From NCBI GenBank assembly GCA_000091205.1, contig AP006501.2: a DNA stretch of 64,000 bases. One strand, given 5' to 3'. Position numbers and translations under genes: made by a program. Shown here one piece after another: positions 1,017 to 49,727 of this stretch. Numbering within the stretch: the first letter of the stretch is position 1; each line of letters opens with the position of its first letter. Source of the DNA: Cyanidioschyzon merolae. Lineage: Eukaryota. A model generated the notes under the pieces. It was not told the origin of the DNA. It made no database searches and worked only from the letters and a program-made list of their open reading frames with translations.

Positions 1017-1661
1017 TTGCCTGAAGGATATCTACACATCTTTACTGAACAATGCAAAGAGGGCTGCATTCCTCCTTCGGATTCGTCACACCACAGTACT
1101 CTGATGGTTGACGAGCACAGAAAGAAACAAGTAGATGCGCTGCATGCCAAAACCCGGTATTCACAAAGACTGTTTGCGGTCAATGGGAGACAACGACCTG
1201 TTGTTCACCTTACGGGAGATGAAAGCGACAATAGTAGCCACCATGGGCGTCTCTGTTTCTCGACAGCTCATTCGTATGGTCTCGAAAACACTGGGATACA
1301 ATCGCAAAAAAAGAGTCCTTGTTCAACCACGGCCATTTTCCACCGAAATCGCAACCACAACAAAGATCCTGAAAAGTCACTACCGGTATGAAGCAGAGGG
1401 ACGTGGGTTTGTTTTTTTTCCAGTCGGTGAAACTTCCTTCGGACGAAACGATCGGTGCGTATATGGGTATTCAGGGGCGATGGGCGCCCGGTCTACGTAC
1501 GATCGAAGTCGAAGAGAACGAGGATAACATCGTCTGCTCTAGCTGCAATGGATTCATTTGGTGGCCACAGTTTCGTTCGCAGAGAAGCCACATACCATAG
1601 CACCCTTTTCGTCGATTCATTGAAGACTGTTCTTCGACGCCTCACGGGGTCCTTCTATTAA
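1017..1661 (+). pseudogene. Tc1/mariner-like DDE transposase, N-terminal part only (HTH plus start of catalytic core), frameshifted
   Basis: ORFs 1017-1391, 1135-1527 and 1455-1661 in three frames align to Tc1 transposase. The HTH block SVS..R.L.......GY.RKK..L.....P matches Tc1 LSVSCRTVRRRLLEVGLRGCVSRKKPL. FVFFPVGETSFGRNDRCVYGY corresponds to Tc1 VVFSDESKFELFGSDGRQYVRR. ITSSALAAMDSFGGHSFV corresponds to Tc1 TVKFGGGSVMVWG. Frameshifts occur between blocks and the first catalytic Asp context is degenerate. Confidence 0.5.
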
Positions 1662-2032
1662 GCAACCTAGTGTTTGACCATTCCAGTGGCGTTCCAGCTT
1701 TTGCGGATTCTATCTGGTAATATAGCTGCTTTTCATTTCTCCGCACACTCTGTGGTTCATGCCCATCGAAGCACCGTAAGCTGTCTTATAACGTAATGAT
1801 CGCTCCACTGGGCGAATCACTGATGCGTTTAGTACACGGTAACACTCCGAGGCACGTGCTGTCTTTGTTTCGCAAACCCTTCTCCTTCCGGGAAGGTCCT
1901 CGTCCAAGGGCATAGAGAACTGCGTTTATTTCGAAGAAATAAGAAACCTGAGGGGCGAGCTGAGGTGTGCGCACTTTACCAGGTCGCGTTTGAGAAACCC
2001 CAGCGCAGCGCTTTGGCGATAGAAACGCACGC

Positions 2033-2230
2033 GGAGCTGGCGGAGCACCAAATGGCACAGAGGGCACGCGTTCGAGGACTCCCTGCATTGGTGACTTCAA
2101 CCAGTGGTAATACATGGAAGGAGTTCTTGAACTGAGACTTCAACGCTGCAATTAATAGCAGAAGATATGCGATACTGAAGATGAAACCCACGGAGCTGAC
2201 GTGATCCAGCTTTGTGGAGCAGCATCTCAA
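2033..2230 (+). pseudogene. Fanzor/TnpB C-terminal (RuvC-III) fragment with an in-frame stop
   Basis: The plus-strand frame reads LPALVTSTSGNTWKEFLN*DFNAAINSRRYAILKMKPTELT. This aligns with the element-B ORF GLLALVSTTPNGKKLMEFMNRDFNAAINIRKYALMEKRPPELT. The Arg codon of the RD motif has become TGA. Confidence 0.5.
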
Positions 2231-2367
2231 GGTCGAATTGCATCAGGAGAAGTTGATGCCAGTGGTAGGTGGCCAGTCAAAAAACGCTGGGAGGCGTCTA
2301 TGAGAAGGTGGATATATGTACCCTACATGGTGGTGGGGCATTATTTGTTTCACTGACTGTAGCGTAT

Positions 2368-3117
2368 TGGTCACTTTTCACTGTCATGAACGACAGGAAC
2401 TTTTGCGTGCCTCTTCTGTGACTGCTTCCTTTTCCTCGATCCCCGATCTGTGGATTTCAATACGCAGGTCTCGCTTGTCGATCCAGCTCCGCTATCAAAG
2501 AATTTGACGCCCAGAGTGAAGCTCCCGTCTATGCTTCGCTTGGCATTGTCGATCTCTGTGTATACAGCGTCGGTGCGACCCTCGAAGCGCTTGCTCGTCC
2601 GTATGGTCAAGTGTTCCCAGGGGTGTCCAGTGCACCTCCTCCTCCTCAGAGCGCCGTCCTGCCGAACGTTAACGCTTGCTATGTCGCTCGGTACATGCCC
2701 CTGACTGATACGGAACGCTGCCATCGGCGCCCGCACTCCGCTCCCGAGTCCGATGCCGTACCCTACGACCACGAGCTTGTTCTGGGCAACGCTCTCGGCG
2801 AGTGCGCTACCCGACGCACACGAGAGCGCTCACTGTCCCATTCAAAAACGTGTTTGTGGGAAGCGGTGTCGCTCATGGTGAATAAGCACCGAGCGGGAAA
2901 TCCAGGATACGGAACAAGTCGAGCGATATCGATCCGTCTCTGCGCTCTTCGAATAATACCTTGTCGCGTTTTTTTGCACTGGAAGCGAATGCTGCGATGG
3001 CTCAAGCCCAAGTCCGAGACCTTTCCTATGGAGAGAAAAGAGGCAGGGAGCGTCGAAGAGCGTGTCCTCTGACAGGTATGATGCTGCTCGGGATTGTCGA
3101 TTTATCGATTGCTACAA
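2368..3117. repeat. Direct repeat, copy 1 of 2 (about 750 bp, near-identical to 5587-6336)
   Basis: A sequence beginning ggtcacttttcactgtcatgaacgaca and ending gattgctacaaag recurs 3219 bp downstream. The embedded ORFs (2371-2772 minus, 2611-3072 plus) differ from their counterparts by only a few residues, implying about 97-98% nucleotide identity. No protein domain was recognised. Confidence 0.85.
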
Positions 3118-3703
3118 AGAAGGGCGGATTTTTCAACTAGAAGGATATCCATCGTCTGACGAAACAAGTTCTGTAAACTTTCTGAACGAGCTTGTGAACA
3201 AATCGTTGAAGACGCCGTGGAGGTGTTTCCTCGACAATCCAGCAGCGCGCATAGCAGCGCGCGCGAGTTGCCTTGAAACAGAAAGATCGATGACTTGGAG
3301 AATATTTAATTGCTTCAATTTACACATCATGAATGGAGAAGACTATAGTCTTCTCCATATGCATTGCATCGCGATATCACATAAATGACAAAATTTTGTC
3401 CGAGAACGTCGCATATTGCCTTTTATTCCGATGACGTGACAAACTCCAACGACGAAGAGGCCAATGATCTACATCGAAAAGACGACCGAGAATTCCAAAT
3501 TTTCGTGCGAATCGGTAAATACCCTATTCCTACACATCGAACGTTGAGGATGTGCATCCAAAACAAGTTCGGAAAGAAACCTCAAGGCGGGAGCGAACCA
3601 TGGAGTTCAGGGCTCCACGTTCATCCAACAGAGATGCAGGCTGGGAAGCGGTTGCACCAGGTCGTCTGCAGAGCCTGCCCCATGCTCTCTTCAAATCGAA
3701 TGT

Positions 3704-10989: not shown

Positions 10990-13745
10990 GCTCAGCTTAG
11001 CATACACCATGCGGTGCATCGTTTGGTTTCACGCGATGCCTCGCTTCCAGCCTCAGCGCGCAACGCTCCTCGAGATGTGTGTACGTCATCCTAAACGCAT
11101 CGATGGGAATCGAATACCATCGATGCCTGTTCTCGTTGCACACTCTAGGCGAAGGAGCTGGTGTGTTAACTTTTTTTGGGAACCGTGCGCCCTGCTCCGT
11201 ACGCTACTACGAGCCTCTGACTCTGGTCCTCCGTGAGGGCGCTCATCTGATTAAAAAAGTTGGCGAATGCAAGCCGTTTCCCTTTGCACAAGTTCAGTCG
11301 CTGACGAGCCCACCTGGGCTTTGTATACTCTTTCCGTAGCGCCTCGTCATGAGCAGCTTGAGTTCCCGTGGATTCCCGAAAAGCTTCAAAGGCCGCTTTG
11401 CGGCCCGTCAGTTTGTTCATCGCTTCCAGATGCTTCTTCATTCCTGAATTCCACGTCTCACTCTGTTTCCTTGCATTCATTATACCCGATTCTTGGTGAT
11501 ACCTCGCTCTTGAGAACTTTCAAAGACGCATGCCTTTCTGAAGTAAGTTGCCGTCGATACCATCTTTCGCACACTTGCGTGCAGCAATGGTTACGATCTT
11601 CGTGTTCTCGGGGCGAAGAGCAACGACAAATTCGTTCTCCTACGGGTTATACGTTCCAGGATCTGCCTCCTTTTTTTCTTCATGTTCCGCCAAGGGCGAC
11701 AACAAAGACGCATTAGGTCGATCCACCTTCAAGCGCCTGTAGTGAATGCATGTGGACACTCCATCGATATCGAACATCCCCGTGAATACCTTTTGCTTGC
11801 TGATTTTGAGACGTTTGAAATTGAAGATGTTCTTCCAGTACGTCTCCCGGTTTTCGCCGGTGAAGTCCTCCCTGCTAACATAGAACTCGGGACAGATCTG
11901 CTTCATGATTCCATGAAGGATTCTGGAGTCGATACTCACAAAATGTGACCTGATGTTGCACAACAGAACGATGTTGAAGCGCTTCCCCGTTAGGAAAGCC
12001 TTCCGTCTCTCCCACTCTTCATTTTTTCTCGACACGCCTCCTTTTCGGCCTTGCGTTCGAGTTCTCGATTCAAAAACACGAAATAGCGTAGCACGAGGTG
12101 ATAGCATCTTTCTTCATCTTTTATCATATCTGATCCCTGTTCTGTTGGGTTGACAAGCCCCGAGACCGCACGGTGCTCTTGAAAAGCCGCACGGATCACA
12201 GAAGCTTCATTCTTTCTCCTGGCTGATGCCTTCTTGTTGACGAATTCGATCTCCTGTTTATTCCTACAATTCTTCGTGATGCCGTTGATGATGGCCCATA
12301 TCGTTTTGCGAGAGAGGCCCGGGTAGAGTGCAAACACGGCGCGTATCACGAAACGTTCGATATTCACGATCATATGGTTCCTCGGGCTCGTGGGGTATCT
12401 CATCGCCCCGTATTCGGAAATACGCGAGTCACCCCTGTATCCAGTACCGTCGAAGCGGTATTTGGCGTGATTTTCGTGGAGGGCATGCACTCGCTCATTT
12501 TTCGTCGACGCGTCCCCTGTGCCAACCATCAGGTGACGAATAAAGTTCATGTTGAGAAACTCTTCCGAAACCTCGACTGTTTTGATGTCCGTCACGTCGT
12601 GATACATCCCCTGCACCAAATGCATCAGCCCTGAAGAAGCCTCACGAACACTCATGGAGTACGAATCGACATGGTTTCTGATGGATTCTCGCAACGTTTC
12701 CTTCTACGAGTCCTTGATAGGTCCAAGAGGACAGGCTTTCACAACCATATCGTCGTGCTGTCGTCATTCTGGGAGCTTCTGACATTGGACCTCCCGATTT
12801 TGCCTCTTCCTTTTGTCTTGCACTTCTGCGCTTGGTACTTTTGTTCGTTTTTTCTTATGCGGCAGCTGGCGGCACCTGCCCTCCAGGATCCTTCATTTCC
12901 GTGTCCAGGACTTTCCTTTGCTATTTTTTTGAAAAAAAAACGCACATTGAACGCTTCTGTTATGAAACACGTAAAATCACTTGAATACACTAATGTGAAC
13001 GTTGAAAGACGATTGAATTGAAACACTATAATTTGCAATGACTTGAACGCAGATGCAACTTGTACGTCGAAGCGACAAGTCGACGAACGGTCAGGATCGC
13101 GTTACATTTCAACGGCGACATGCGTGTCGCGTCTCGTGAAGGCCTGATCTCCCAGGTGCGCATATCGAACCTACTATATAGAATAAAGAGCAGAGACTCT
13201 AGATTCACCCGCAAATATGAATAGCCATATTTCTTTCCCCTCTACGATACACGTTAAACGCGGGAAAAGTTTCTTTATTGCGGATAGTTTGCTTCATAGG
13301 CGATGGGTCCCGCGAACCGGACGAGTCTGTCGAGGATGTGCTTCATGCGACTCTGCAGTACCGAGCGCTGTAGTGAGACCCCAGCAGCTCGTCGGCAACG
13401 CAGTCTATTCTGGGACTAGGGCCAGTTAGGCTGCGTCTGTGCGTCACCCTGGTCGCGGTGGACTCCTAGTATATCGCTTCGCGCTGCCACAGGAAGTACG
13501 CCAGTCCGCGCGGGTTTCAGGCTCCTAGAATGATAATGTATACCGATTCCATGTTGAATGAACCACGCCTCGGGCCGATGCTCCCAGTTGTATGGCAAAG
13601 CCGTTGCGTCCCCGGGCAGCATCTGCTTCAGCGGTATGCAAGCGCTACAGTGGGTGCTCGAAGCAGGCACTCGGCGCACCAAAGAACATACGAAACAACC
13701 AGTATATCCGAGAGGAATTATCGGTAATGGAACTTGAAGGTATGG
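10990..13745 (-). mobile_element. Fanzor/TnpB-like transposon, degenerate copy A (about 2.7 kb)
   Basis: Nucleotide and protein homology to 38255-40795 runs along the full length. Shared landmarks include APCSVRYYEPLT, [28 protein letters not shown], KRLAFANFFNQMSALTEDQSQRLVVAYGAG, LPxAARSDxLGVHxDQGDA, and the terminal motif ACGAAACAACCAGTATATCCGAGAG. The 3' (RuvC-III) end is diverged or lost. Confidence 0.55.
11166..12694 (-). pseudogene. Fanzor/TnpB-like nuclease pseudogene (copy A), with in-frame stops and a lost RuvC-I Asp
   Basis: Minus-strand ORFs 11990-12694 (234 aa, starts with Met), 11640-12107 and 11166-11480 together form one gene. Hand translation of the minus strand across 11560 gives [56 protein letters not shown]. 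This is the RuvC-I position but reads ALRPEN where copy B reads GADPGN, and it contains a TGA stop. The N-terminal 200 aa are about 50% identical to copy B. Confidence 0.5.
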
Positions 13746-14311
13746 TGCGGAATGATGGACACAATCTCGATTACCAATGTCCGTCGTGCAATCTGGGATT
13801 CACGGACAATGGAAACCTCATCGAAAAATTCACCAGTGAGATCAACACTCGGGCGATCGTGCGCGCCATTGCCAGTGGCGGACACCGGATCGCACATGCG
13901 CAAACAGATACCCATATACTTATGGAGGATCGTAACTTGCTCAATTTCTATCCAGGTACTTATATATACATAAATATATAATATGGCACACCATTGGAAA
14001 TCGAATCGAAAGCGGGAACGGCCGCGGGATCCATGCGCCGATGCGCCAGGCGTACGGGCGCACGACCCGCAAGGACATCGATGCATGCGCATCGCGCGAC
14101 CGTGATGCCGCGTTTGCCGCTTCCCAGATGCGCCGTCTGCGGAATCTTTCCCTGCACAGATGCGCTCGTGTACGCCGATGATGCACCTCCACCGTGATCC
14201 AAAAACATGTGATATGCAACGTTTTTTTTCGTTGTTGTTCTGCGAACGATACGTTCACTCCTATTCGAAGAAAAAGTCACTTGAATCAATCGATCTGAAA
14301 GCGATTCAACA

Positions 14312-16299: not shown

Positions 16300-17103
16300 T
16301 CAGTATCGACGCTGATGCATCGACGTGATCTTCTCCATGAAGAGCCGTTGTCGCTCGCGTACGCTCAGCTTGCTCACGAGCTCAGGCGAGGCCAACGGAT
16401 CGTTGCCTCGGGACCGACCACCGTGAGGGCTCGCTCCGCTGCTCTCCCGACGCATCTGGCTCGAAGCGTCCGCTGCCTGCACATCCGACACACTCGCCGC
16501 TTCAAGACGATCGCAAAGCTCCTGCAACTTGCTCTCCGCGTATTCGCGACGCTGCATCTCGAGAGTCAGGGCCTCGGTCATCTCCTGGCGAAAGCGCTCA
16601 AAACGTTCCCGCAGTGTGTCGAGTTCGGTCTCAAGGTCGGCACATCGGTAGCGCCAATATTGTTCTCCGGTGCCCGCCGGGTGCTCTGGAGCTGAGCGCG
16701 CTTTCGCAGATAAGTTGATCGGCTGCTTCCATAGGGTTGCGGGATCAGCGCCCTCTTCGGAGACTGCGCTCGCGTCGGCCGCTCCAGTCGTGGACACGTT
16801 TTCCAAGTTGCCGTCAAGGCGCTTCGTGTTCGGCTCCTCCTCCGCCGCCGCTGTGATGTTCAGTTCCCGCAAGGCTTGCTCCAGCTCAGCTTGCCCGAGT
16901 TCTCGGCAGTAGTTCTTGGGCAGCCAGCCCTGTGCACCATCGCGCAAACGTTTCCCATGCACCCATTTTGAGTCTGAGACCGTTTCCCCGACTGCAAGGA
17001 TATCACCTCGTTCCAGTTTCAGTTGCCCTTTACCTTCCTTACCAGCAGGAGGGTTATAAGGATACCTGCACTTGACCAAACGCTGCATGATCTTTTCTTT
17101 CAC
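16300..17103 (-). CDS. SH3-domain protein with a C-terminal coiled coil
   Basis: The N-terminus KCRYPYNPPAGKEGKGQLKLERGDILAVGETVSDSKWVHGKRLRDGAQGWLPKNYCREL has the SH3 signature (ALYDY-like start, W..G, G.G.FP.NYV-like end). It is followed by a charged helical region. Length is 267 aa. Confidence 0.6.
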   Translation of the reverse strand: MKEKIMQRLVKCRYPYNPPAGKEGKGQLKLERGDILAVGETVSDSKWVHGKRLRDGAQGWLPKNYCRELGQAELEQALRELNITAAAEEEPNTKRLDGNLENVSTTGAADASAVSEEGADPATLWKQPINLSAKARSAPEHPAGTGEQYWRYRCADLETELDTLRERFERFRQEMTEALTLEMQRREYAESKLQELCDRLEAASVSDVQAADASSQMRRESSGASPHGGRSRGNDPLASPELVSKLSVRERQRLFMEKITSMHQRRY

Positions 17104-17947
17104 AAGAACGGAAGCGCAGCGCGATCAGACGGTACCGAGAGCGCCCGTGGCTATCGCGCTCGTCGGGGTGCAGAGAAAACCGCGGCGAGGCGCGCGGATC
17201 GGCGATTTGAATTTCCTGTGGATGGTGTCGTATGGATGCATGGGAGAAGGTGTCCACGAATTCCGCCATTGTTGTTGGCAACCGGGACAGCAGCCACCAC
17301 TTCAATCCAATATTGTCGAATGCCAGTAGTTAGAAGCGGGATTGGCTTTCAGAGACCATGATTCATTCATGTGAGGCTTCGGATTCTAAGCGTACCGTTC
17401 GTGGTCTTTGCGATTGGCTCACGCGAACGTCGCGCTGTTGTGCTGAAGCGGCCCGATATCACTCGGTTGTGCAGTTTCCGATCTTTCGATATACCTGCGT
17501 CAGATGAAAATGGGAATGAGAATCATAAGATCTGCTCGCACTTCTCGGTTTTACGGACTATTTATTCGATTTGTAGTTTTAGTGGTATAAGTGCAGCAGT
17601 GAGGGTTTGTGGACTCAGAGGTAGTTTTTCGGATTCTTTGTCGTGTTTTTCAGAGTGAATTGCTCGGCGCGTTGCGCTTGAATTCATTACGTCATTATCC
17701 GTACGATCATTCGGGACGCGGTCGAACGCGGTCTTATGAAACAAGAGATTAGAGTATCCAGTGTTTGGGTAGAAGCCTCCACGCTTCTCCGCATCCTTGC
17801 GTGTCGCTTGACCGGCTCCTGCGTTCTTCAAGTTTTCGATCACTCTGTGCCAAGACAACTGGCGGGTGCAGCAATTTGCGCCGTTCGACTGATAAGTGAA
17901 AATATGGCCGGGAACACGATAAACATTTCACGACAATGTAGGGAAAA

Positions 17948-18256
17948 TTAGTGTCCATTCGCAGATATCTTGCAGCTTTTTGCTGGCCGGCCATCAGCAA
18001 CCGGTTTCAGTGTAGCCAGACATGCTTCGAGCCTGAGAGGCTGCCCCATAAAGTTAGATAGCCTCAGCTCCGCGGGTCTCGTCCTGGGCACCGCGCATCC
18101 CCTGATATCGATGGTGGCAAGGAAGTCACGGTTCACGAACTCCATGCAGGCACTGCCGCTGGTTGAACGCACCTCTGCAAGGAGTCCCCGAACTCGTATC
18201 TTCTGTGCCACTACAATCTCGTCATCGTGCTGTCGGGCAAACACATTTTTTGTCAT
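17948..18256 (-). pseudogene. Fanzor/TnpB C-terminal (RuvC-III region) fragment, copy 2
   Basis: DEIVVAQKIRVRGLLAEVRSTSGSACMEFVNRDFLATIDIRGCAVPRTRPAELRLSNF aligns with copy B KVRGLLALVSTTPNGKKLMEFMNRDFNAAINIRKYALMEKRPPELTRELF. The NAAxNI core is mutated. Confidence 0.5.
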
Positions 18257-18508
18257 CTATAGCTTCTCTTCTTTTCCTGTTTTGCTGCTTGCGCCTCTTC
18301 GCTCAATGGTTGGCGAGAAGGGAATTTTTATTGGCTTTTTTTTGTCGAACCCGGCGATGACGGCCCTCCAGGATCCTCGACTTGCATGTCCATACCTCTC
18401 ACATGGATTTGTTATCTTTGATAATGAACGCAATTCTTTGTGCCCTTAGGTGAGAACCTTCTCTGAGGGTGAAGGACCTGCGGTGGAAAGTCGACATTTA
18501 CCCTGGTG

Positions 18509-36657: not shown

Positions 36658-37983
36658 TCATTTGTTCCGATTCTTCTTCGGTGCCGAGTCTGTATTGGGC
36701 GCTGCAGACGCATTCGAAGTTTCGTTCTGCGTTTCTGTGATGACGCGCGTGTAGCAGCTCGTGTATGAAACCGCCCCAAAGCCTTCTGAATCATCAATAA
36801 TCTCGGCTTCCTGGAAACGACTTTCATCGAAATTCAGACGCTGCAGAAGCTCTTGCATGCGCGGAGAAAGGGTCTGCGGCTCGCTCGAGTAGCGCGGGAT
36901 CTGGTTTCCTCGATACCGGTGTCGATACGCTCCTCGACTCGTCATTCTCGACGTGTTAGCGAGCTTTTTCAGCTCCTGAGGCGCCATCGACTGGTCTGGC
37001 GTGCGTCGGCCAACCGCACTCCGGGAACCGGGGCCAGAGCTGGACGCGTCTGGACGTTTGTCGGCAGTTGGCTTCGCTCCTGGAACGGAACCTCTGCGGC
37101 TGCCGGCGGTTGCGTCGCGCCCCAGACCGGGAGCCGACGCAGACGATTCTCGTCGAGCGGTTTCGAGCCCGTTGCTTGGTGCGATGCTACTCGGGTGCGG
37201 GTCGCTGGGCGGCGGCCCCGTGCCTTGACTCCAGTGACCCTGCGGATGACGCCCCTGAGTATCAGATGAACGCCGTTGCGTTGGTGCTGGCGCGGGTTCA
37301 TGCGGCAACGGCACCGCTGGTGATGTAGGTTTCGATTCTGGAGGCGTCTTGAGCGCAGCTCTTGTGCGCGGTTTTCTTTTCTCCGACTTTGATGTGGTGG
37401 ACGACTCCGAAGGCAGTGGAGTCACAGAAGCGGAGGGGCGTTCAGGAACACGCGGGTGCTTCAAGTCGCGCGTTGACTTTGGGTCCCTCTGTTTCGGGCG
37501 CGGACGGAATGCGCGCCGCCGCTCTGGCGGCCCAATGTCGGCGTCCTCCGCGTGATCCTCCTCGAAGTCTAAGCGCATCCAACAGGGCGAAATCGCTGTC
37601 CTTTGTGCACAGTGGTGTCGCCATCGCCGCGTACGACACGTACCGGAGCAGTTAAAAGCAGAGCAGCGGCTCTCGTTGCGAAGTGCGCCGAACACCGAGA
37701 CAAAAGCGCAGTCGCGATGCGCGCCCATGGTAGACGCTCCCTGATCCACTTGGAAGCAATGGAAAAGCACCATCGACGACAAAGCGTGCGCGTGCGGCAC
37801 AGACGGGTTGGTAAAATACGTCCTCAATGAACAACGACGGGTTGAACAAACGCACCCCACTGTCGACAACCGGTCGTCAGTGCGTCTCGACGGGTCCGTC
37901 TGGGAACCGCCCTTGCGCCAAAAACTGGGTACGGCCGACCTTGAATCCGATGAGAAGCCCCGTTGCCTGTGTGTGCGCTTCAC
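36658..37983 (-). CDS. Hypothetical Pro/Ser/Arg-rich low-complexity protein; coding status uncertain
   Basis: The 441-aa ORF lies in a very GC-rich interval where both strands carry long ORFs (36232-36768 plus, 36276-36827 minus). No domain was recognised. It is reported only because it is the longest ORF in a 2.8-kb interval that otherwise has no gene. Confidence 0.2.
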   Translation of the reverse strand: MKRTHRQRGFSSDSRSAVPSFWRKGGSQTDPSRRTDDRLSTVGCVCSTRRCSLRTYFTNPSVPHAHALSSMVLFHCFQVDQGASTMGAHRDCAFVSVFGALRNESRCSAFNCSGTCRTRRWRHHCAQRTAISPCWMRLDFEEDHAEDADIGPPERRRAFRPRPKQRDPKSTRDLKHPRVPERPSASVTPLPSESSTTSKSEKRKPRTRAALKTPPESKPTSPAVPLPHEPAPAPTQRRSSDTQGRHPQGHWSQGTGPPPSDPHPSSIAPSNGLETARRESSASAPGLGRDATAGSRRGSVPGAKPTADKRPDASSSGPGSRSAVGRRTPDQSMAPQELKKLANTSRMTSRGAYRHRYRGNQIPRYSSEPQTLSPRMQELLQRLNFDESRFQEAEIIDDSEGFGAVSYTSCYTRVITETQNETSNASAAPNTDSAPKKNRNK

Positions 37984-38254
37984 TCCTGCGTTCTCTGTAA
38001 CAGCTCTAGGGCCTTCTGCAAGTGCCAGGAGAAGCCCACTGGCAGAGCGGGGTTCACGAAACCGAAAAGGCTACGCTTTCCGACCGATTCCACACGGTGG
38101 AACGTTTCAAGCTCGCAACAGTGCCCCTGGTTTCCTGTTCTCCAACAAGTACTGGGTCAAAAACCGTACACAAAAAGCACACACCGCCGGCAACAAACGC
38201 TTTTCAAAAGAAAGACGCTGCCGCCAGCGGTGTACAGTAGTCGCGACCGGCGCC

Positions 38255-40322
38255 CTAGAGGAAACGTCTCCAATTGACGTGCAGACGCCTTCCAGCTTTT
38301 TTCCACTGGCCACCCACTACGGCTTCCAACTTTATCTCATATAATTCCACATTCAGAGATTGTTCAATAAAGAGTTCTCTTGTCAACTCTGGGGGTCTCT
38401 TCTCCATCAACGCATATTTCCTTATATTGATGGCAGCATTAAAGTCTCGATTCATAAACTCCATCAGTTTCTTGCCGTTGGGAGTTGTACTCACTAATGC
38501 AAGTAGTCCACGAACTTTCGCGCTCCTTTCCATTTGCTCTTCCGTCAGCGTACCGTACTTTCTTATAACCTCAGGACTCCTCTGGCACTTTTCCATCTCG
38601 ACCCTCTGAAGTGTACACCCCAGTTCATGGTGTGTATAGGACGTTCGAAACTCATCTACAGGTATCGTGCCGATACGCCGTGCACACTCTTTGTACGTTC
38701 TTGTCGTTGGAGCTGGCGAAGTTCCTTGCTTGGGTCTTCCGTCGCCCTGCTCCGTACGCTACTACGAGCCTCTGACTTTCATCCTCCTTCAAGGCGCTCA
38801 GCTGATTGAAAAAGTTCGCGAATGCACGCTGCTTCCCACAATACAAATTCATTCGCAGTCGAACCCGCCGGGGCTTGGTCTACTCCTCCTACAGCGCATC
38901 CCAATGAGCAACACGAACTTCCATGAATTTCCGTAGAGCCTGAAAGTCCGCTCCTCGGCTTGTCACCTCGCTCAAAGCTTCCAGGTGCTCTTTCATTCCT
39001 GCATTTCACTTCTCAATTTTCTTCCTCGCATTCATTATACCGGATTCTCGATAGAATCTCGCTCTCGAGAACCCCAAAAGACGCATGTCTTTCTGACGTA
39101 AGTTAGCATCAGTACCATCTTCCGCACGCTAGGGTACTGCGATGGTTATGTTATTTGTGTTTCCGGGATCCGCGCCAACGACAAAGTCGTTATCTTGCAC
39201 CTCCTGCGTCGCAGGATCCGCCTCCTTCTCATCTTCATGCATCGTCGCGCCAACGACAAGGTCGTTATCTTGCACCTCCTGCGTCCCAGGATCCGCCTTC
39301 TGCTCATCTGCATCCTTCGTCACGGGCGCAGCCGAGGGAGGGACTGGGCGATCTGTCTTCAACCGCCGATAGTGTATACACAAGGCTACTCCATCGGTTT
39401 CGATCATCTCAGTGAATACCTTTTGTTTGCTGACTTTGAGACGTTTGAAATCGAAGATACTCTTCCAGTACGTCTCACGGTTTTCACCGGAGAATTTCTT
39501 CCTGCTAACATCGGACTCAGGACTGATCTCGCTCATGATGCTGCAAAGACGCCAGAGTGGATAGTCACAAAATGTGACTTGATATTGTACATTGGAACAA
39601 CGTTGAAGCGCTTCCCCATTAGGAACGCCTTCCGTCTCTCCCACTCTTCATTTTTTCCTCATTCAGCCTCATCTCTGCCGTGCGTTCGAGTTCGCGGTCC
39701 AAAAACACGAAATACCTCAAGATGAGGAGGTAGTATCTTTCCTTATCTTTTCCAACTCTGATATCTTGTCTGCTGGATTAACCAGCCCCAAGACTGCACG
39801 GTGTTCCTGTATAACCGCACGGATTAGAGAAGCTTCATTCGTGCACTCATTCGACGCCTTCTTGTCAACGAACTCGATCTCATCTTCATGATGGCGATCG
39901 TTCGTGATGCAACTGATAATTGCCCATTTTCCTGCGCGAGACAGACCCAGGTAGAGTGCAACCACGGTGCGTATCATGAAACGTTCGAAGTTCGCTGTCA
40001 AATGGTTCTTCAGATTCGCGAGGTACTTCATCGCCCCATAGCTGTAAATATCCCAGTCACCCTTGTACCGAGTACCCTCGAACCCGTCAAAGGGATGTTT
40101 TTCGTGGAGAGCATGCACTAGCACATTTTCCCTCCGCGCTTTCTCTGTACCAAGCATCAGGTGACGAATAAAGGTCTTGTCGAAGAACTCGCCGGGAATC
40201 TCGACCGTTTCCATGTGCGTCCCGTCGCGATACATCTCTCTCACCAAATGCATCAGTCTTGACAACGCGTTGACAATACTCTTGGAGTACGACGCAAAAC
40301 GTTTTTCGATAGCGTCTCGCAA
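38255..40322 (-). pseudogene. Fanzor/TnpB-like RuvC-fold nuclease gene (about 640 codons) disrupted by in-frame stop codons
   Basis: Minus-strand ORFs 39717-40322 (201 aa, starts with Met), 39129-39644, 38779-39009, 38652-38852 and 38255-38596 are collinear pieces of one gene. Hand translation keeps a single frame from RuvC-I through HDTCR but passes TAG, TGA, TAG and TAG stops; the first three are AVP*, IEK* and DAL*. One frame change occurs before the RuvC-III exon-like piece. About 257 aa separate RuvC-I from RuvC-III, which is appropriate for Fanzor. A possible degenerate Cys-pair segment (VCTAYRHDTC ... GCTLQRVEMEKC) precedes RuvC-III. Confidence 0.55.
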
Positions 40323-40795
40323 CTTTTGTTTATGGGGATCCTTGATATATCCAAAAGGGTCCGCCAGGCTCGCGCTTCATGCTCCCGCCAGTACTTACTG
40401 CTGTAGCGATATCTAAGCGACTCGTCGAGAAACGCTGGTCATTCTGGGCTCGGGGCGGGTAGCCTGCGTCAGGGGCGTCGCCCTGGTCGCAGTGGACTCC
40501 TAGCGTATCGCTTCGCGCTGCTGCAGGCAGTAGGTCTAACTGCACATCTCCCAGGCTTCCAGAATGTTGACGAATCCCGATTCCGTATTCAATGAAGCAT
40601 TCCTCGATCCGATACCCCCATGGATATGGCAAAACCGTTCTGTCTCCATTCAGCATCCGCACTAGCAGCATCGGCTCTATTGCGGATGCAGCAATGCAGG
40701 TACTCAGCGCACGATGGAACATACGAAATTACCAGTATATCCGAGAACAGACCATGAAACTTGGCGTAAGAGCGAAGCATATTGAGCACTGGCAT
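38255..40795 (-). mobile_element. Fanzor/TnpB-like transposon, copy B (about 2.5 kb, better preserved)
   Basis: Homologous to copy A over its whole length. It carries a recognisable RuvC-I motif ([20 protein letters not shown] 39129-39644) and a RuvC-III motif (LMEFMNRDFNAAINIRKYAL, ORF 38255-38596) in the TnpB order. The 5' terminal motif is ACGAAATTACCAGTATATCCGAGAA at about 40725-40750. Confidence 0.6.
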
Positions 40796-40983
40796 TGATT
40801 CCAATATCCACCCCACAATCTAGAATCCATGATCCATACAAACGTCTTCTCATCGAAGAAATGGCTTCAGCAGCCACAACGCTACCGACGACGACGTCAA
40901 TTACAATAACGCAATCTGGCATACATTATCTGGAGCTAGCGTTGTACCGGGAGTCTGCGTGCCTCGGTCGCTAGTCGACGTCC

Positions 40984-42315
40984 TTGCCCAAGGATATGTG
41001 GGTGTCTACAGTGCACGGGTGGCAAGCGCTACCCCACTTGGAAGGCGTGCGACAGCACCGACGAGCACCGTGCCGACGACCTCCGCGAACCGCGAGGCGC
41101 TCTGACGCTGGAGTCTCGCTGCCTCGAACTGCGTTGCCGACTCGAGGGCGCTTCACTGCTGGGGTACCGACGTCAGCAGACTGCTCCGCGGTGCCGCGTT
41201 TGCGCTGCTTGGATGCGACACCAGCCAGCAGCGATGGAGCGGACACCGCTTCGACTCCAGCTGCAGCGGCAGGTGCGGGCGCTCAAAGCGTAGGGAGCGC
41301 AGTGGTTGCCTCCGAGCGCCCAGCGGACGCGAGAAGTGCAGCCTTGGTAGCTGCGGTGGCCACTACGCGTCCGGCACGTGATCTGGCTGTCCGAGTGGTG
41401 TCCGGCATTGTTATGGGTTTGGTTGCCACGACCTGGATTCTGGCGGGTATCTGGGTGTTTACGGCCGGTCTGACAGTTGTCGCAGTGCTCGGTCAACTTG
41501 AGTATTATAACATGGTGCGGGCAAAGGGCATCCGACCGGCACAACGCGCTGGGATAGCGGCGTCCATTTTGGCGCTGTGGGTAGCCGCAGCAGCACCGCA
41601 GGCATCAGAGGCCGTGTTCCCGGTCTCAGCGACGCTGATCTGTACCTACATGCTGTTGCATCGCCGGGAGAAGTTCGCTACGATCGCCGACATCAGCACA
41701 ACGTTCATGGGAATGTTTTACGCTGGATACCTGCCGACCTTCTGGGTTCGCATGCGAGCTCTCGGCGGCATTGAGCAGACGCGCTTTCCAGCGGTGGTAT
41801 CGCGTCTCCCCGATGTGCTGTGGCCAGGCTGGTTGCCACCACCGGAAGGCTGGACCGTAGGCGCAGCCCTAACCTGGTGGACCTGGCTCTCAGTGGCAAG
41901 TAGTGATATCGGTGCGCTGTTTATTGGCCGCGCGTTCGGGCGCCGCAAACTCAGCGACATTTCGCCGAAGAAGACCGTCGAAGGCGCCATCGGAGGCTTC
42001 CTCTGTTCTGCACTCGTTTCGATATTGGGAGCTTTCTTGATGAGATGGCCGCTCTGGTGGCTCACCGGCACCCTCTACGGAATCCTGATTGGCGTCGTGG
42101 GCCTTCTGGGAGATTTGACAGCCTCCCTCTTCAAGCGTGACGCTGGATTCAAGGACTCGCCTGCAACAGCGTTTGGGGGACGTTTCCGCTGGGCGCTCCC
42201 CGGCCACGGAGGAATTCTCGATCGAACCGATAGTTTTGTATTTACAGCGCCCCTCGTATATTATTTTGTCACCATGTTTTTGCCTGCGTTGCGCGCCTTT
42301 ATTTTGAAGAGATAG
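40984..42315 (+). CDS. Phosphatidate cytidylyltransferase (CDP-diacylglycerol synthase, CdsA family) with a presequence-like N-terminus
   Basis: The C-terminal signature is SPKKTVEGAIGGFLCSALVSILGAF ... GDLTASLFKRDAGFKDSPATAFGGRFRWALPGHGGILDRTDSFVF. This is the CTP_transf_1 motif (SPxKTxEGxxGG; GDLxxSxxKRxxGxKDSxxxxPGHGGxxDRxDS). Multiple transmembrane segments are present. The first 130 aa are Arg/Ser/Ala/Thr-rich, which is consistent with organelle targeting but unproven. Confidence 0.85.
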   Translation: MPKDMWVSTVHGWQALPHLEGVRQHRRAPCRRPPRTARRSDAGVSLPRTALPTRGRFTAGVPTSADCSAVPRLRCLDATPASSDGADTASTPAAAAGAGAQSVGSAVVASERPADARSAALVAAVATTRPARDLAVRVVSGIVMGLVATTWILAGIWVFTAGLTVVAVLGQLEYYNMVRAKGIRPAQRAGIAASILALWVAAAAPQASEAVFPVSATLICTYMLLHRREKFATIADISTTFMGMFYAGYLPTFWVRMRALGGIEQTRFPAVVSRLPDVLWPGWLPPPEGWTVGAALTWWTWLSVASSDIGALFIGRAFGRRKLSDISPKKTVEGAIGGFLCSALVSILGAFLMRWPLWWLTGTLYGILIGVVGLLGDLTASLFKRDAGFKDSPATAFGGRFRWALPGHGGILDRTDSFVFTAPLVYYFVTMFLPALRAFILKR

Positions 42316-48094: not shown

Positions 48095-48190
48095 TGGCGT
48101 CGATGGTGGCAGCGCACACCACGGCACGACGATAGGATGTACGAAACGACCAGAATATCCGAGAAGAAGTGCAGGTAATGTAACTTGGAG
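48095..48190 (-). mobile_element. Orphan fragment of the Fanzor-element 5' terminus
   Basis: The sequence acgaaacgaccagaatatccgagaagaagtgcaggtaatgtaacttggagg is about 80% identical to the terminus of copy A (acgaaacaaccagtatatccgagaggaattatcggtaatggaacttgaagg, about 13695-13745). It also matches the terminus of copy B at about 40725-40790. No adjacent Fanzor coding sequence is present. Confidence 0.4.
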
Positions 48191-49727
48191 GTAGCGGGTT
48201 TGATGGATACTTTGCCGCGTACTGAGAAAAAAACACACAAAAAAAGCAGGAAAAGAAAAATGCGCATAATCGGAGAACGCTGGACTAAGTAAACGTTTTG
48301 TCAATGAAAAAAAAACACGGAGCGGCCGCTCGGCGCAACCAGTGCGCACCCTGGAGGCGACACGAACGGCACCGGAGGCGCGCCATTGCGATGCTTGCGC
48401 TAACGATTGTGCTGCTCAGGAAGGATATACTGGGAGGCACGGCTCATGCTCGGGAAGCGAGCAGATTCGCGAACAGCATGCCAACGTGATCGTTGTCGCA
48501 GGGGCTGGGGGCGGGCATCGAAGAGCAGGCGACTATCCGGTCAGCGATGCACCATCGAGTCGTGTGCATGTGAACGATACCGAGTGCTAGAGCCGGTGTA
48601 TCAACTCGTCACCAGGTCGTTATCTTACCCAGGTATCGTTGGAGTACTTGGGTATCGTCAAAGTTGTGGATGCTGGCATGCTACTCCTGGAGGTCCTTCG
48701 TGAATGCATCTGTACTGATCGGTTGCCACGATGTGGGGGAATTCGCAGCAACGACGCCAACAGAGACGTCGTCGATGTCGGTCGTTTGACGTTTTGCACT
48801 TGTCTCGATGCAGAGGATCTGATCGCGTCCGTTTGCTGCTTATCCAAACGTGTGCCTCCAGCTAGCACTGCCTACGAACAAGATGCGGTTCCGCTGATGC
48901 GAATGCGCAGCATCCTGACGAGTTCCCGCGGAAGCGCACATACGTCGATTGCTCAGCACCCTCAAACACGAGATACGAGGATATGGTCGCTATGTGGTTT
49001 ACGATCTACATGGATGTAATGAGCGTGTGACGATGGTTTGGGAGCGATGCGGGCCTCGTCGATATCACCGCCGAATCTGAAGTATGCGCCGTCGATGTGG
49101 CATCGTCGCAGAGAGAACATAGAGCGCAGCGTTTTTCACGGTCAACGGTATGTGAGTGTATCTGACAATGGACCAGCAAATGCGTACTTTGAGCAGGAGT
49201 GACCGCCGTGCACCATTGGTGGTGAAGGGAGTCTCGGGCGAGATAGCGGGGACCGCCAGCATCACCTCGTCTTTCTGGAAAACCCCATGAATTCAAAGAA
49301 ACGAGAATCGACGCGAATGCTCACAATAGCAATCATATCGTTCTGATCGTCCAATTGTTGAAGACGTCAACTGCAAAAACTCAGTTTACGTCAGAAAACG
49401 GGATCGGATGCGAATCCATACCATATCATCAAGCCGCTGCACTGTTGCGTGTCGAAGACGTGAAACTCGAATCCAAGTGCGCATTCCCTTGAGGCAGTTG
49501 CATCGTCGCACCTGGGCCTGGAGCTCCTGGTAAATCTGGGTGTCTTGCAAATGTTCCGCTTCAGGGGCGATGCGCGGCACTACAGGGGAAACACCCAAGG
49601 TCAACGGCGGCCTCGCTCAAGCTGGTGACACCCTACTCGAATGTCGATGCGCGAGATCCCAGCTTGCATGCCCTACTGCGGCATCTGCTGCTCAGCCTCT
49701 TGTGCGCGTTTTGCATCATCGTGACAG

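Follow-up and report, generated by a model that had tools for sequence, protein, structure and literature searches.

A decayed copy of the Fanzor1-bearing transposon family CMe-1A on chromosome 19 of Cyanidioschyzon merolae

The thermoacidophilic red alga Cyanidioschyzon merolae carries, on its nuclear chromosome 19, a broken gene for a RuvC-type nuclease, which we assign here to a known transposon family. The sequence analysed was a stretch of 64,000 nucleotides (contig AP006501.2; hereafter the window), in which five long open reading frames (ORFs) match proteins of C. merolae strain 10D exactly (CMS040C onward). We conclude, with a probability that we put at about 0.96, that positions 38184..40855 on the minus strand are a fossil, non-functional copy of CMe-1A, a Fanzor1-bearing family of non-autonomous DNA transposons of this alga. 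An earlier note, made from the letters alone, had seen at this place a dead Fanzor-type RuvC nuclease gene in a transposon relic, and this proposal was borne out by a match to the CMe-1A consensus, by a diverse family profile (A3) and by the predicted fold of a near-intact relative (P0001).

CMe-1A was described by Bao and Jurka (2013; Mobile DNA 4:12, PMC3627910), who listed it as the single Fanzor1 family of C. merolae, with ~150 copies, each ~80% identical to a 3169-bp consensus, a protein of 734 aa, no terminal inverted repeats (TIRs) and undetermined target site duplications. They also reported that the 5' 635 bp of CMe-1A recur, at 95% identity, as TE-N2_CMe, an element distinct from it, that the protein is still encoded intact in some copies, and that the CMe-1 protein belongs to Fanzor1; rhodophyte Fanzors were counted again in surveys of 2023. 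The earlier note, from which this report was absent, was right that the genome hosts a Fanzor family, and the CMe-1A identity of the region, already known since 2013, is not new.

Taking the consensus DNA and the CMe-1 protein from Additional files 2 and 3 of that paper, we compared them with the window by blastn and global alignment. The consensus matched at 85% identity over 2576 aligned bases, with its base 1 at 40855 and its base 3169 at 38198; the aligned segments, i.e., consensus 1-499 and 1084-3169, include both termini. The extent first proposed, 38255-40795, lies inside an element that is slightly larger, reaching ~38184 or 38180 when the 3' hairpin described below is counted. No inverted repeat linking the two ends was found in the window copy, the sole match being the arms of that local hairpin, and this absence of TIRs agrees with the published family. 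Given the 85% match to a published transposon consensus, and relatives of the repaired protein at E = 0, a chance match is excluded.

The conceptually repaired protein is 698 aa long and has 49 database relatives at 51-79% identity, mostly from hot-spring metagenomes, as well as more distant ones such as a protein of the volvocine alga Gonium pectorale, which is its closest named protein match; an exhaustive profile search extended the clade to 2446 cluster representatives at E <= 1e-3. When the A3 profile, built from 54 diverse clade members that are 24-40% identical to P0001, was run against the PDB, it matched three entries, all of them Fanzor1 (PpFz1 of Parasitella parasitica, 9cf0, 2.2e-24; SpuFz1 of Spizellomyces punctatus, 8gkh, 2e-17; GtFz1 of Guillardia theta, 9cer, 3.2e-13), and beyond these nothing below E = 10. 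The DPG, DEFRT and RDxNAAxNI motifs were aligned with the Fanzor1 structures in these matches: GADPG (39176..39162) fell on the DPG/DPN of PpFz1/SpuFz1 and VDEFRTS (38659..38639) on IDEFRTS of PpFz1 and LDEYKTS of SpuFz1, and NRDFNAAINI (38452..38423) reads as the Fanzor1 RuvC-III motif RD(x)NA(A). Two signatures set Fanzors apart from TnpB, namely the DPG and an alternative RuvC-II glutamate (Yoon et al. 2023, PMC10711439), the latter sought as D-E-[FY]-[RK]-T-[ST] immediately ahead of the place of the zinc finger, and both are present in the window copy.

Moreover, an AlphaFold2 model of P0001 (69% identical to the relic), computed on the A3 alignment, reached a predicted local distance difference test score (pLDDT) of 82.4 and a predicted template modelling score of 0.80; an earlier run with a shallow alignment had given a pLDDT of 43 and was discarded. 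In a Foldseek search of the PDB with this model, the top seven matches were all Fanzor1 (E = 2.8e-17 to 5.9e-14, target-normalised template modelling score up to 0.73), and Cas12 and Fanzor2 structures appeared only at E > 1e-3. Taken together, the family profile and the modelled fold place the CMe-1A relic in Fanzor1.

Several observations weigh against this placement, or against taking the region for a plain copy of the family. For the repaired protein, Pfam gave only a sub-threshold Cas12f1-like_TNB match at RDFNAAINI (E = 0.075; PF07282 scored 13.7 bits against a cut-off of 26.3), and for seven of its relatives likewise only sub-threshold TNB matches; phmmer of the repaired protein against the PDB gave no match, and a profile of close relatives only (A2) gave nothing meaningful there, the diverse A3 alignment being needed. 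The link to Fanzor1 hence runs through family profiles and the model of a relative. The CCCC zinc finger between RuvC-II and RuvC-III, which is part of the Bao and Jurka motif (PMC3627910) and of the SpuFz1 structure and is a listed hallmark of the Fanzor family, is absent from both the window copy and the CMe-1 consensus, which at this position read THHELGC...KC...RGLLALVSTT, with only two cysteines and two histidines. The omega RNA at the 3' end is a prediction from relatives. Finally, the orthologous contig L074, from a 98%-identical strain, differs upstream of window 40357, so that collinearity stops exactly at the junction of a deletion in the window copy. That contig (16400-18816) keeps consensus 648-1083 and then joins a different repeated element (16990-18353), which contains a 236-aa ORF rich in lysine and arginine (K/R-rich) and is 86-89% identical to sequence beside the Fanzor cores of seven other metagenome loci (L004, L008, L009, L023, L037, L047 and L048); this rearrangement could be due to recombination between copies or to a chimeric contig.

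With regard to the zinc finger, the CxxC...CxxC pattern is missing in ~52 of the 54 A3 members (window 38450..38640), cysteine pairs being found only in P0233 and P0258, and the catalytic Asp-Glu-Asp (D-E-D) triad is kept in 53, 54 and 53 of the 54, respectively. Because the original Fanzor1 placement, the profile and the fold evidence agree, the missing zinc finger is a clade-level variation within Fanzor1 and not a ground for exclusion. Of the tests suggested in the earlier note, the structure model matched Fanzor1 best, and the hidden Markov model search of the repaired protein stayed below threshold for the Pfam TNB domain, with Fanzor1 structures matched through the clade profile; the "ZnF-like" segment that the note had perceived lacks the zinc-finger cysteines.

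The weak match to the Cas12f1-like/TnpB TNB domain, along with RuvC motifs that are common to TnpB, could also be read as an insertion of a prokaryotic TnpB element (IS200-IS605 or IS607), or as bacterial contamination, in place of a eukaryotic Fanzor. This reading is effectively refuted: the locus sits between nuclear C. merolae genes of chromosome 19, the top profile and fold matches are Fanzor1 and not TnpB or Fanzor2, DPG stands in place of the TnpB D-hydrophobic-G and the glutamate occupies its alternative site, the protein, at 734 aa, far exceeds TnpB in length, and the whole 2.66 kb is explained by the single-ORF CMe-1A consensus, with no room for a TnpA gene. On these same grounds, the choice of a Fanzor over the short prokaryotic TnpB, which the earlier note had made, stands.

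The copy is unable to make its protein, because the ATG and the first 58 codons are deleted and four frameshifts and four nonsense codons break the remaining ORF. The 580-bp deletion removed the end of the 5' head, the 5' untranslated region (UTR), the ATG (consensus 906) and those 58 codons. When 38100-40950 was translated in its three minus-strand frames, the RuvC-I peptide (17 aa) was seen at 39188..39138 and the RuvC-III peptide MEFMNRDFNAAINIRKYAL at 38464..38408, both intact as had been claimed and within 4-9 nt of the 39129-39180 and 38400-38460 given for them, with the RuvC-II peptide IPVDEFRTSYTHH (38665..38627), which had gone unmentioned, between the two. Exactly four stop codons lie in the RuvC-I frame ahead of the RuvC-II segment, in line with the earlier count, but the single frame that went with it did not survive, as an insertion puts RuvC-II and RuvC-III in another frame than RuvC-I, and three further frame changes occur upstream. 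Likewise, the minus-strand gene was correctly seen, but its residual coding region runs to ~700 codons and not ~640, the RuvC-I to RuvC-III spacing is 241 aa from Asp to Asp and not 257, and nonsense mutations are only part of a damage in which the frameshifts, a 75-bp duplication and the 580-bp deletion had been missed. The coordinates are collected in Table 1.

Table 1. Features of the CMe-1A copy, in window positions (L074, L075 and L055 are metagenome loci; clade representatives are those of A3)
Feature	Position	Strand	Basis and remarks
Whole CMe-1A copy	38184..40855	-	Consensus alignment 40855..38198, plus ~14 nt of 3' hairpin (end ~38184 or 38180)
5' head, TE-N2_CMe-like, non-coding (consensus 1-499)	40359..40855	-	75-78% identical to consensus
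Junction of 580-bp deletion (consensus 500-1079)	40358..40359	-	Global alignment; same junction in L055
Residual Fanzor1 coding region, consensus codon 60 to TAG at 38257..38255	38255..40354	-	~700 codons, including 25-codon duplication
75-bp in-frame tandem repeat, 2 copies (25 aa each), directly before RuvC-I	39171..39321	-	Tandem Repeats Finder (TRF), alignment, self-blast
RuvC-I motif GADPG, predicted catalytic Asp, Fanzor-type DPG	39162..39176	-	Translation; Asp in 53/54 clade representatives
RuvC-II motif DEFRTS, predicted catalytic Glu in alternative position	38639..38656	-	Translation; Glu in 54/54 clade representatives
RuvC-III motif RDFNAAINI, predicted catalytic Asp	38423..38449	-	Translation; Asp in 53/54 clade representatives
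Premature stop TAG (consensus AAG, Lys)	39129..39131	-	Shared with L075, absent in L074
Premature stop TGA (consensus TGG, Trp)	39006..39008	-	Shared with L075, absent in L074
Premature stop TAG (consensus TGG, Trp)	38889..38891	-	Private to strain 10D
Premature stop TAG (consensus TAT, Tyr)	38880..38882	-	Shared with L074 and L075
1-nt insertion, frameshift between RuvC-I and RuvC-II	38728	-	Alignment; shared with L074 and L075
Three 1-nt deletions (frameshifts)	~39753, ~39657, ~39549	-	Alignment; shared with L074 and L075
3' terminal hairpin	38184..38230	-	~20 bp, 5 G.U, UUUU loop; spans published consensus end

The orthologous locus is found at 98-99% identity on three hot-spring metagenome contigs (L074, L075 and L076). 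L074 and L075 have each of the four frameshifts as well as the stop at 38882; L075 additionally has the stops at 39131 and 39008, and the stop at 38891 occurs only in strain 10D. Since the lesions recur in independently assembled orthologs, sequencing error is ruled out and the lesions are real. The death of the gene preceded the split of these closely related hot-spring strains, and stops have kept accumulating stepwise since. Relative to the consensus, substitution rates at codon positions 1/2/3 are 0.119/0.089/0.191 (a ~2-fold third-position enrichment), and the differing codons comprise 99 synonymous and 128 nonsynonymous changes (227 in total), a pattern that indicates earlier purifying selection followed by neutral decay.

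That the three catalytic motifs are intact and that past purifying selection is visible in the third codon position speaks for a gene that is alive, its stops and frameshifts being sequencing errors, introns or programmed recoding, so that the locus would still make a Fanzor1 nuclease. We give this next to no credence: besides the deleted ATG and 58 codons, the independently assembled orthologs also have the four frameshifts and as many as three of the stops, the eight separate lesions include none with intron-like boundaries, the stops that differ between strains fit neutral decay, and more than half of the differing codons (128/227) are nonsynonymous. When the window was taken together with the 71 related metagenome loci, L001 alone (P0001, whose ORF is without the last 35 residues) had kept an almost complete ORF in which the three catalytic motifs are all present, and most copies are pseudogenes, like that of the window.

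Within the copy, the 3' end is 89% identical to the consensus, and conservation is higher in the 3' half than in the 5' head. The 25-aa repeat before RuvC-I varies in number, with one copy in the consensus, two in the window, four in P0001 and five in P0007, and its region is predicted to be disordered in the AlphaFold model (P0001 residues 386-470).

As to the surroundings, the relic occupies most of a ~3-kb gap between a plus-strand ORF (40984..42315), which is phosphatidate cytidylyltransferase-like with a GHGGILDRTDS motif, and a low-complexity ORF on the minus strand (36658..37983), and it ends ~130 and ~200 bp, respectively, from their starts. A second, larger CMe-1A copy lies at 11132..13816 (-), covering consensus 13-2678 at 81.6% identity; it has the region that is deleted in the flagged copy, to which it is ~75% identical, and is 3'-truncated before RuvC-III. 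Short fragments of the family lie at 1957..2299 (+), 18026..18194 (-), 18337..18435 (-) and 48129..48217 (-), two of them being 3'-terminal coding pieces, one a piece around the start codon and one a TE-N2-like 5' piece, and the 64 kb thus hold five or six pieces of CMe-1A in all.

The 5' part of the element proved modular. Most metagenome copies (L001-L074) share a Fanzor core that starts at ~consensus 646 and differ in the heads upstream of it, which are TE-N2 in direct orientation, the TE-N2 5' end inverted, a sequence containing GGACACGTGTCC, or others; the published CMe-1A may be a composite of TE-N2 and a ~2.5-kb core. The deletion junction (consensus 499/1080) recurs at the locus L055:1984-4573, which is 76% identical to the window copy and shares no flanks with the window by tblastx, i.e., the two are non-orthologous. 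The recurrence of this junction at a non-orthologous locus suggests that the 580-bp deletion defines a subfamily without a start codon, itself propagated in trans. No fusion of the 5' head to the truncated Fanzor ORF is shared between the window and L055.

At the very 5' end, a T-rich run (GATTTTGTTTC, abutting CGATGAC) precedes the published start in all copies that begin at consensus 1, and was seen at window 40856..40868 and 13817..13830 and in L005, L020, L023, L032, L039, L046, L055 and L056. It could be a target preference, resembling a transposon-adjacent motif, or ~12 unrecorded nucleotides of the element. An empty site that would define the target was not found, the orthologous contigs all carrying the element. 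Of note, in L020 and L033 the next element begins 55 nt after the end of the previous one.

At the 3' end, where we compared the 71 metagenome loci, the window copy bears a hairpin on the sense strand, CCGCUGGCGGCAGCGUCUUUC-UUUU-GAAAAGCGUUUGUUGCCGGCGG (38230..38184), which folds at -28.8 kcal/mol (z = -5.7, with none of 200 shuffles as stable), against -14.8 kcal/mol (z = -1.6) for the antisense strand; a second small hairpin is also present. The hairpin overruns the published CMe-1A end by 8-14 nt, and because this conserved structure continues past base 3169, the published consensus is slightly short at its 3' end. The sense strand is the more stable one in 43 of 47 distinct copies (3' ends from L001-L072), G.U pairs make up 159 of 774 predicted pairs, and subfamilies with different stem sequences still pair (TTCGA/TCGAA versus TTCTA/TAGAA, and CGTTTTTC/GAAAGGCG versus CACGCGC/GCGCGTG; these are examples, without covariation statistics). 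RNAalifold predicted no structure on the alignment of the 3' ends because the register of the hairpin varies between subfamilies, and folding was hence done copy by copy. An Rfam scan of 37500-41500 gave no match. A hairpin that is rich in G.U pairs and specific to the sense strand would suit an RNA element, such as the terminal stem of an omega RNA or a 3' end signal, and it would also suit an end for single-strand DNA transposition.

A copy whose coding part is dead might still matter, its 3' end supplying an omega RNA/guide, or a transposition end, in trans. In favour of this, the terminal hairpin has stayed intact, shows its unusual stability only on the sense strand and is kept across diverged copies with different stem sequences; the start-codon-less derivative occurs at at least two non-orthologous loci, which implies mobilisation in trans; and the conservation of the 3' half over the 5' head points the same way. 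We nevertheless regard a continuing role as quite unlikely, as the presumed promoter and the 5' UTR went with the deletion, the better 3' conservation may be due to former coding constraint alone, and a near-full ORF able to supply the protein is present in only 1 of the 71 metagenome loci.

By homology, the intact progenitor would have consisted of a non-coding, TE-N2_CMe-like 5' head and one intronless ORF of ~734 aa, followed by a short 3' UTR that closed with a strong hairpin on the sense strand. Its protein would have had a K/R-rich N-terminal stretch and REC/WED-like regions, and its RuvC domain, which is split, would have carried D431, E603 and D672. If it worked as its Fanzor1 and TnpB homologs do, an omega RNA would be cleaved off the 3' end of the transcript that encodes the protein, and the protein, once bound to this RNA, would cleave guide-matched DNA next to a transposon-adjacent motif, thereby aiding the persistence of the element. 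This model of RNA guidance draws on characterised relatives (Saito 2023, Jiang 2023, Xu 2024), and RNA guidance, the omega RNA and the way in which the element is mobilised are inferred.

As found, the result matters little, in that it re-identifies one of ~150 decayed copies catalogued in 2013. It is useful as a positive control, i.e., a broken RuvC nuclease proved recognisable from a reading of the sequence alone, and its by-products (the 3' end, the loss of the zinc finger, the deletion subfamily and the modular 5' heads) are refinements of a known system that may aid the testing of Cyanidiales Fanzor1 or the classification of the element. A bolder view, which we hold to be doubtful though worth stating, is that the CMe-1 clade, which has hundreds of cluster representatives among algae and other eukaryotes, is an active Fanzor1 lineage that has given up the CCCC zinc finger and kept the D-E-D triad, with an omega RNA ending in the 3' hairpin that runs past the published end and a subfamily mobilised and maintained purely in trans. 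If it were true, thermoacidophilic Cyanidiales would offer, in an intact copy, a programmable nuclease that lacks a zinc finger and is adapted to heat and acid, and the start-codon-less deletion subfamily would exemplify mobilisation and maintenance purely in trans.

Set beside the CMe-1A consensus, the window copy matches in its termini, ORF, motifs and lack of TIRs, and differs in lacking 500-1079 and in its extra 75-bp repeat, four frameshifts and four stops. The characterised Fanzor1 proteins SpuFz1 (PDB 8GKH/9CEU; Saito et al. 2023) and PpFz1/GtFz1 (Xu et al. 2024) have the same overall fold as the P0001 model along the entire protein (Foldseek E ~1e-17, target template modelling score 0.72) and share with the CMe-1 clade the RuvC-I DPG, the alternative RuvC-II Glu and the RuvC-III RD, yet they are only 12-16% identical to it. 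The CCCC zinc finger of the NUC/TNB domain, present in SpuFz1 and in ISDra2 TnpB, is lost in the CMe-1 clade, and the variable, disordered repeat insertion before RuvC-I is a feature of this clade that sets it apart from SpuFz1, PpFz1 and GtFz1.

Fanzor1c of Chlamydomonas reinhardtii (CrFNuc; Bao & Jurka 2013, Jiang et al. 2023) is likewise an algal Fanzor1 in a multi-copy non-autonomous element. The Helitron2 elements that carry CrFNuc resemble CMe-1A in having no transposase of their own and a 3' UTR or 3' terminal hairpin that is structured and conserved, whereas Chlamydomonas Fanzor1 genes have introns and the zinc-finger cysteines, unlike CMe-1A. A search of the CMe-1A copy for the asymmetric terminal inverted repeats (a 5'/3' pair) that, along with hairpins at both termini, are typical of Helitron2 found none, the 3' hairpin being present, and CMe-1A is unclassified as a transposon, in contrast to these Helitron2 carriers. 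TnpB of the ISDra2 type (IS200/IS605 OMEGA systems) differs from the CMe-1 protein in its length (~400 aa versus 734 aa), in having D-hydrophobic-G and the canonical Glu where CMe-1 has DPG and the alternative Glu, and in its CCCC zinc finger and TnpA partner, neither of which is present in CMe-1A. The RuvC cores of the two are nonetheless homologous and have the same D-E-D triad, and by analogy the same logic would be expected of both, with an omega RNA made from the 3' (right) end and a terminal hairpin at the end of the element.

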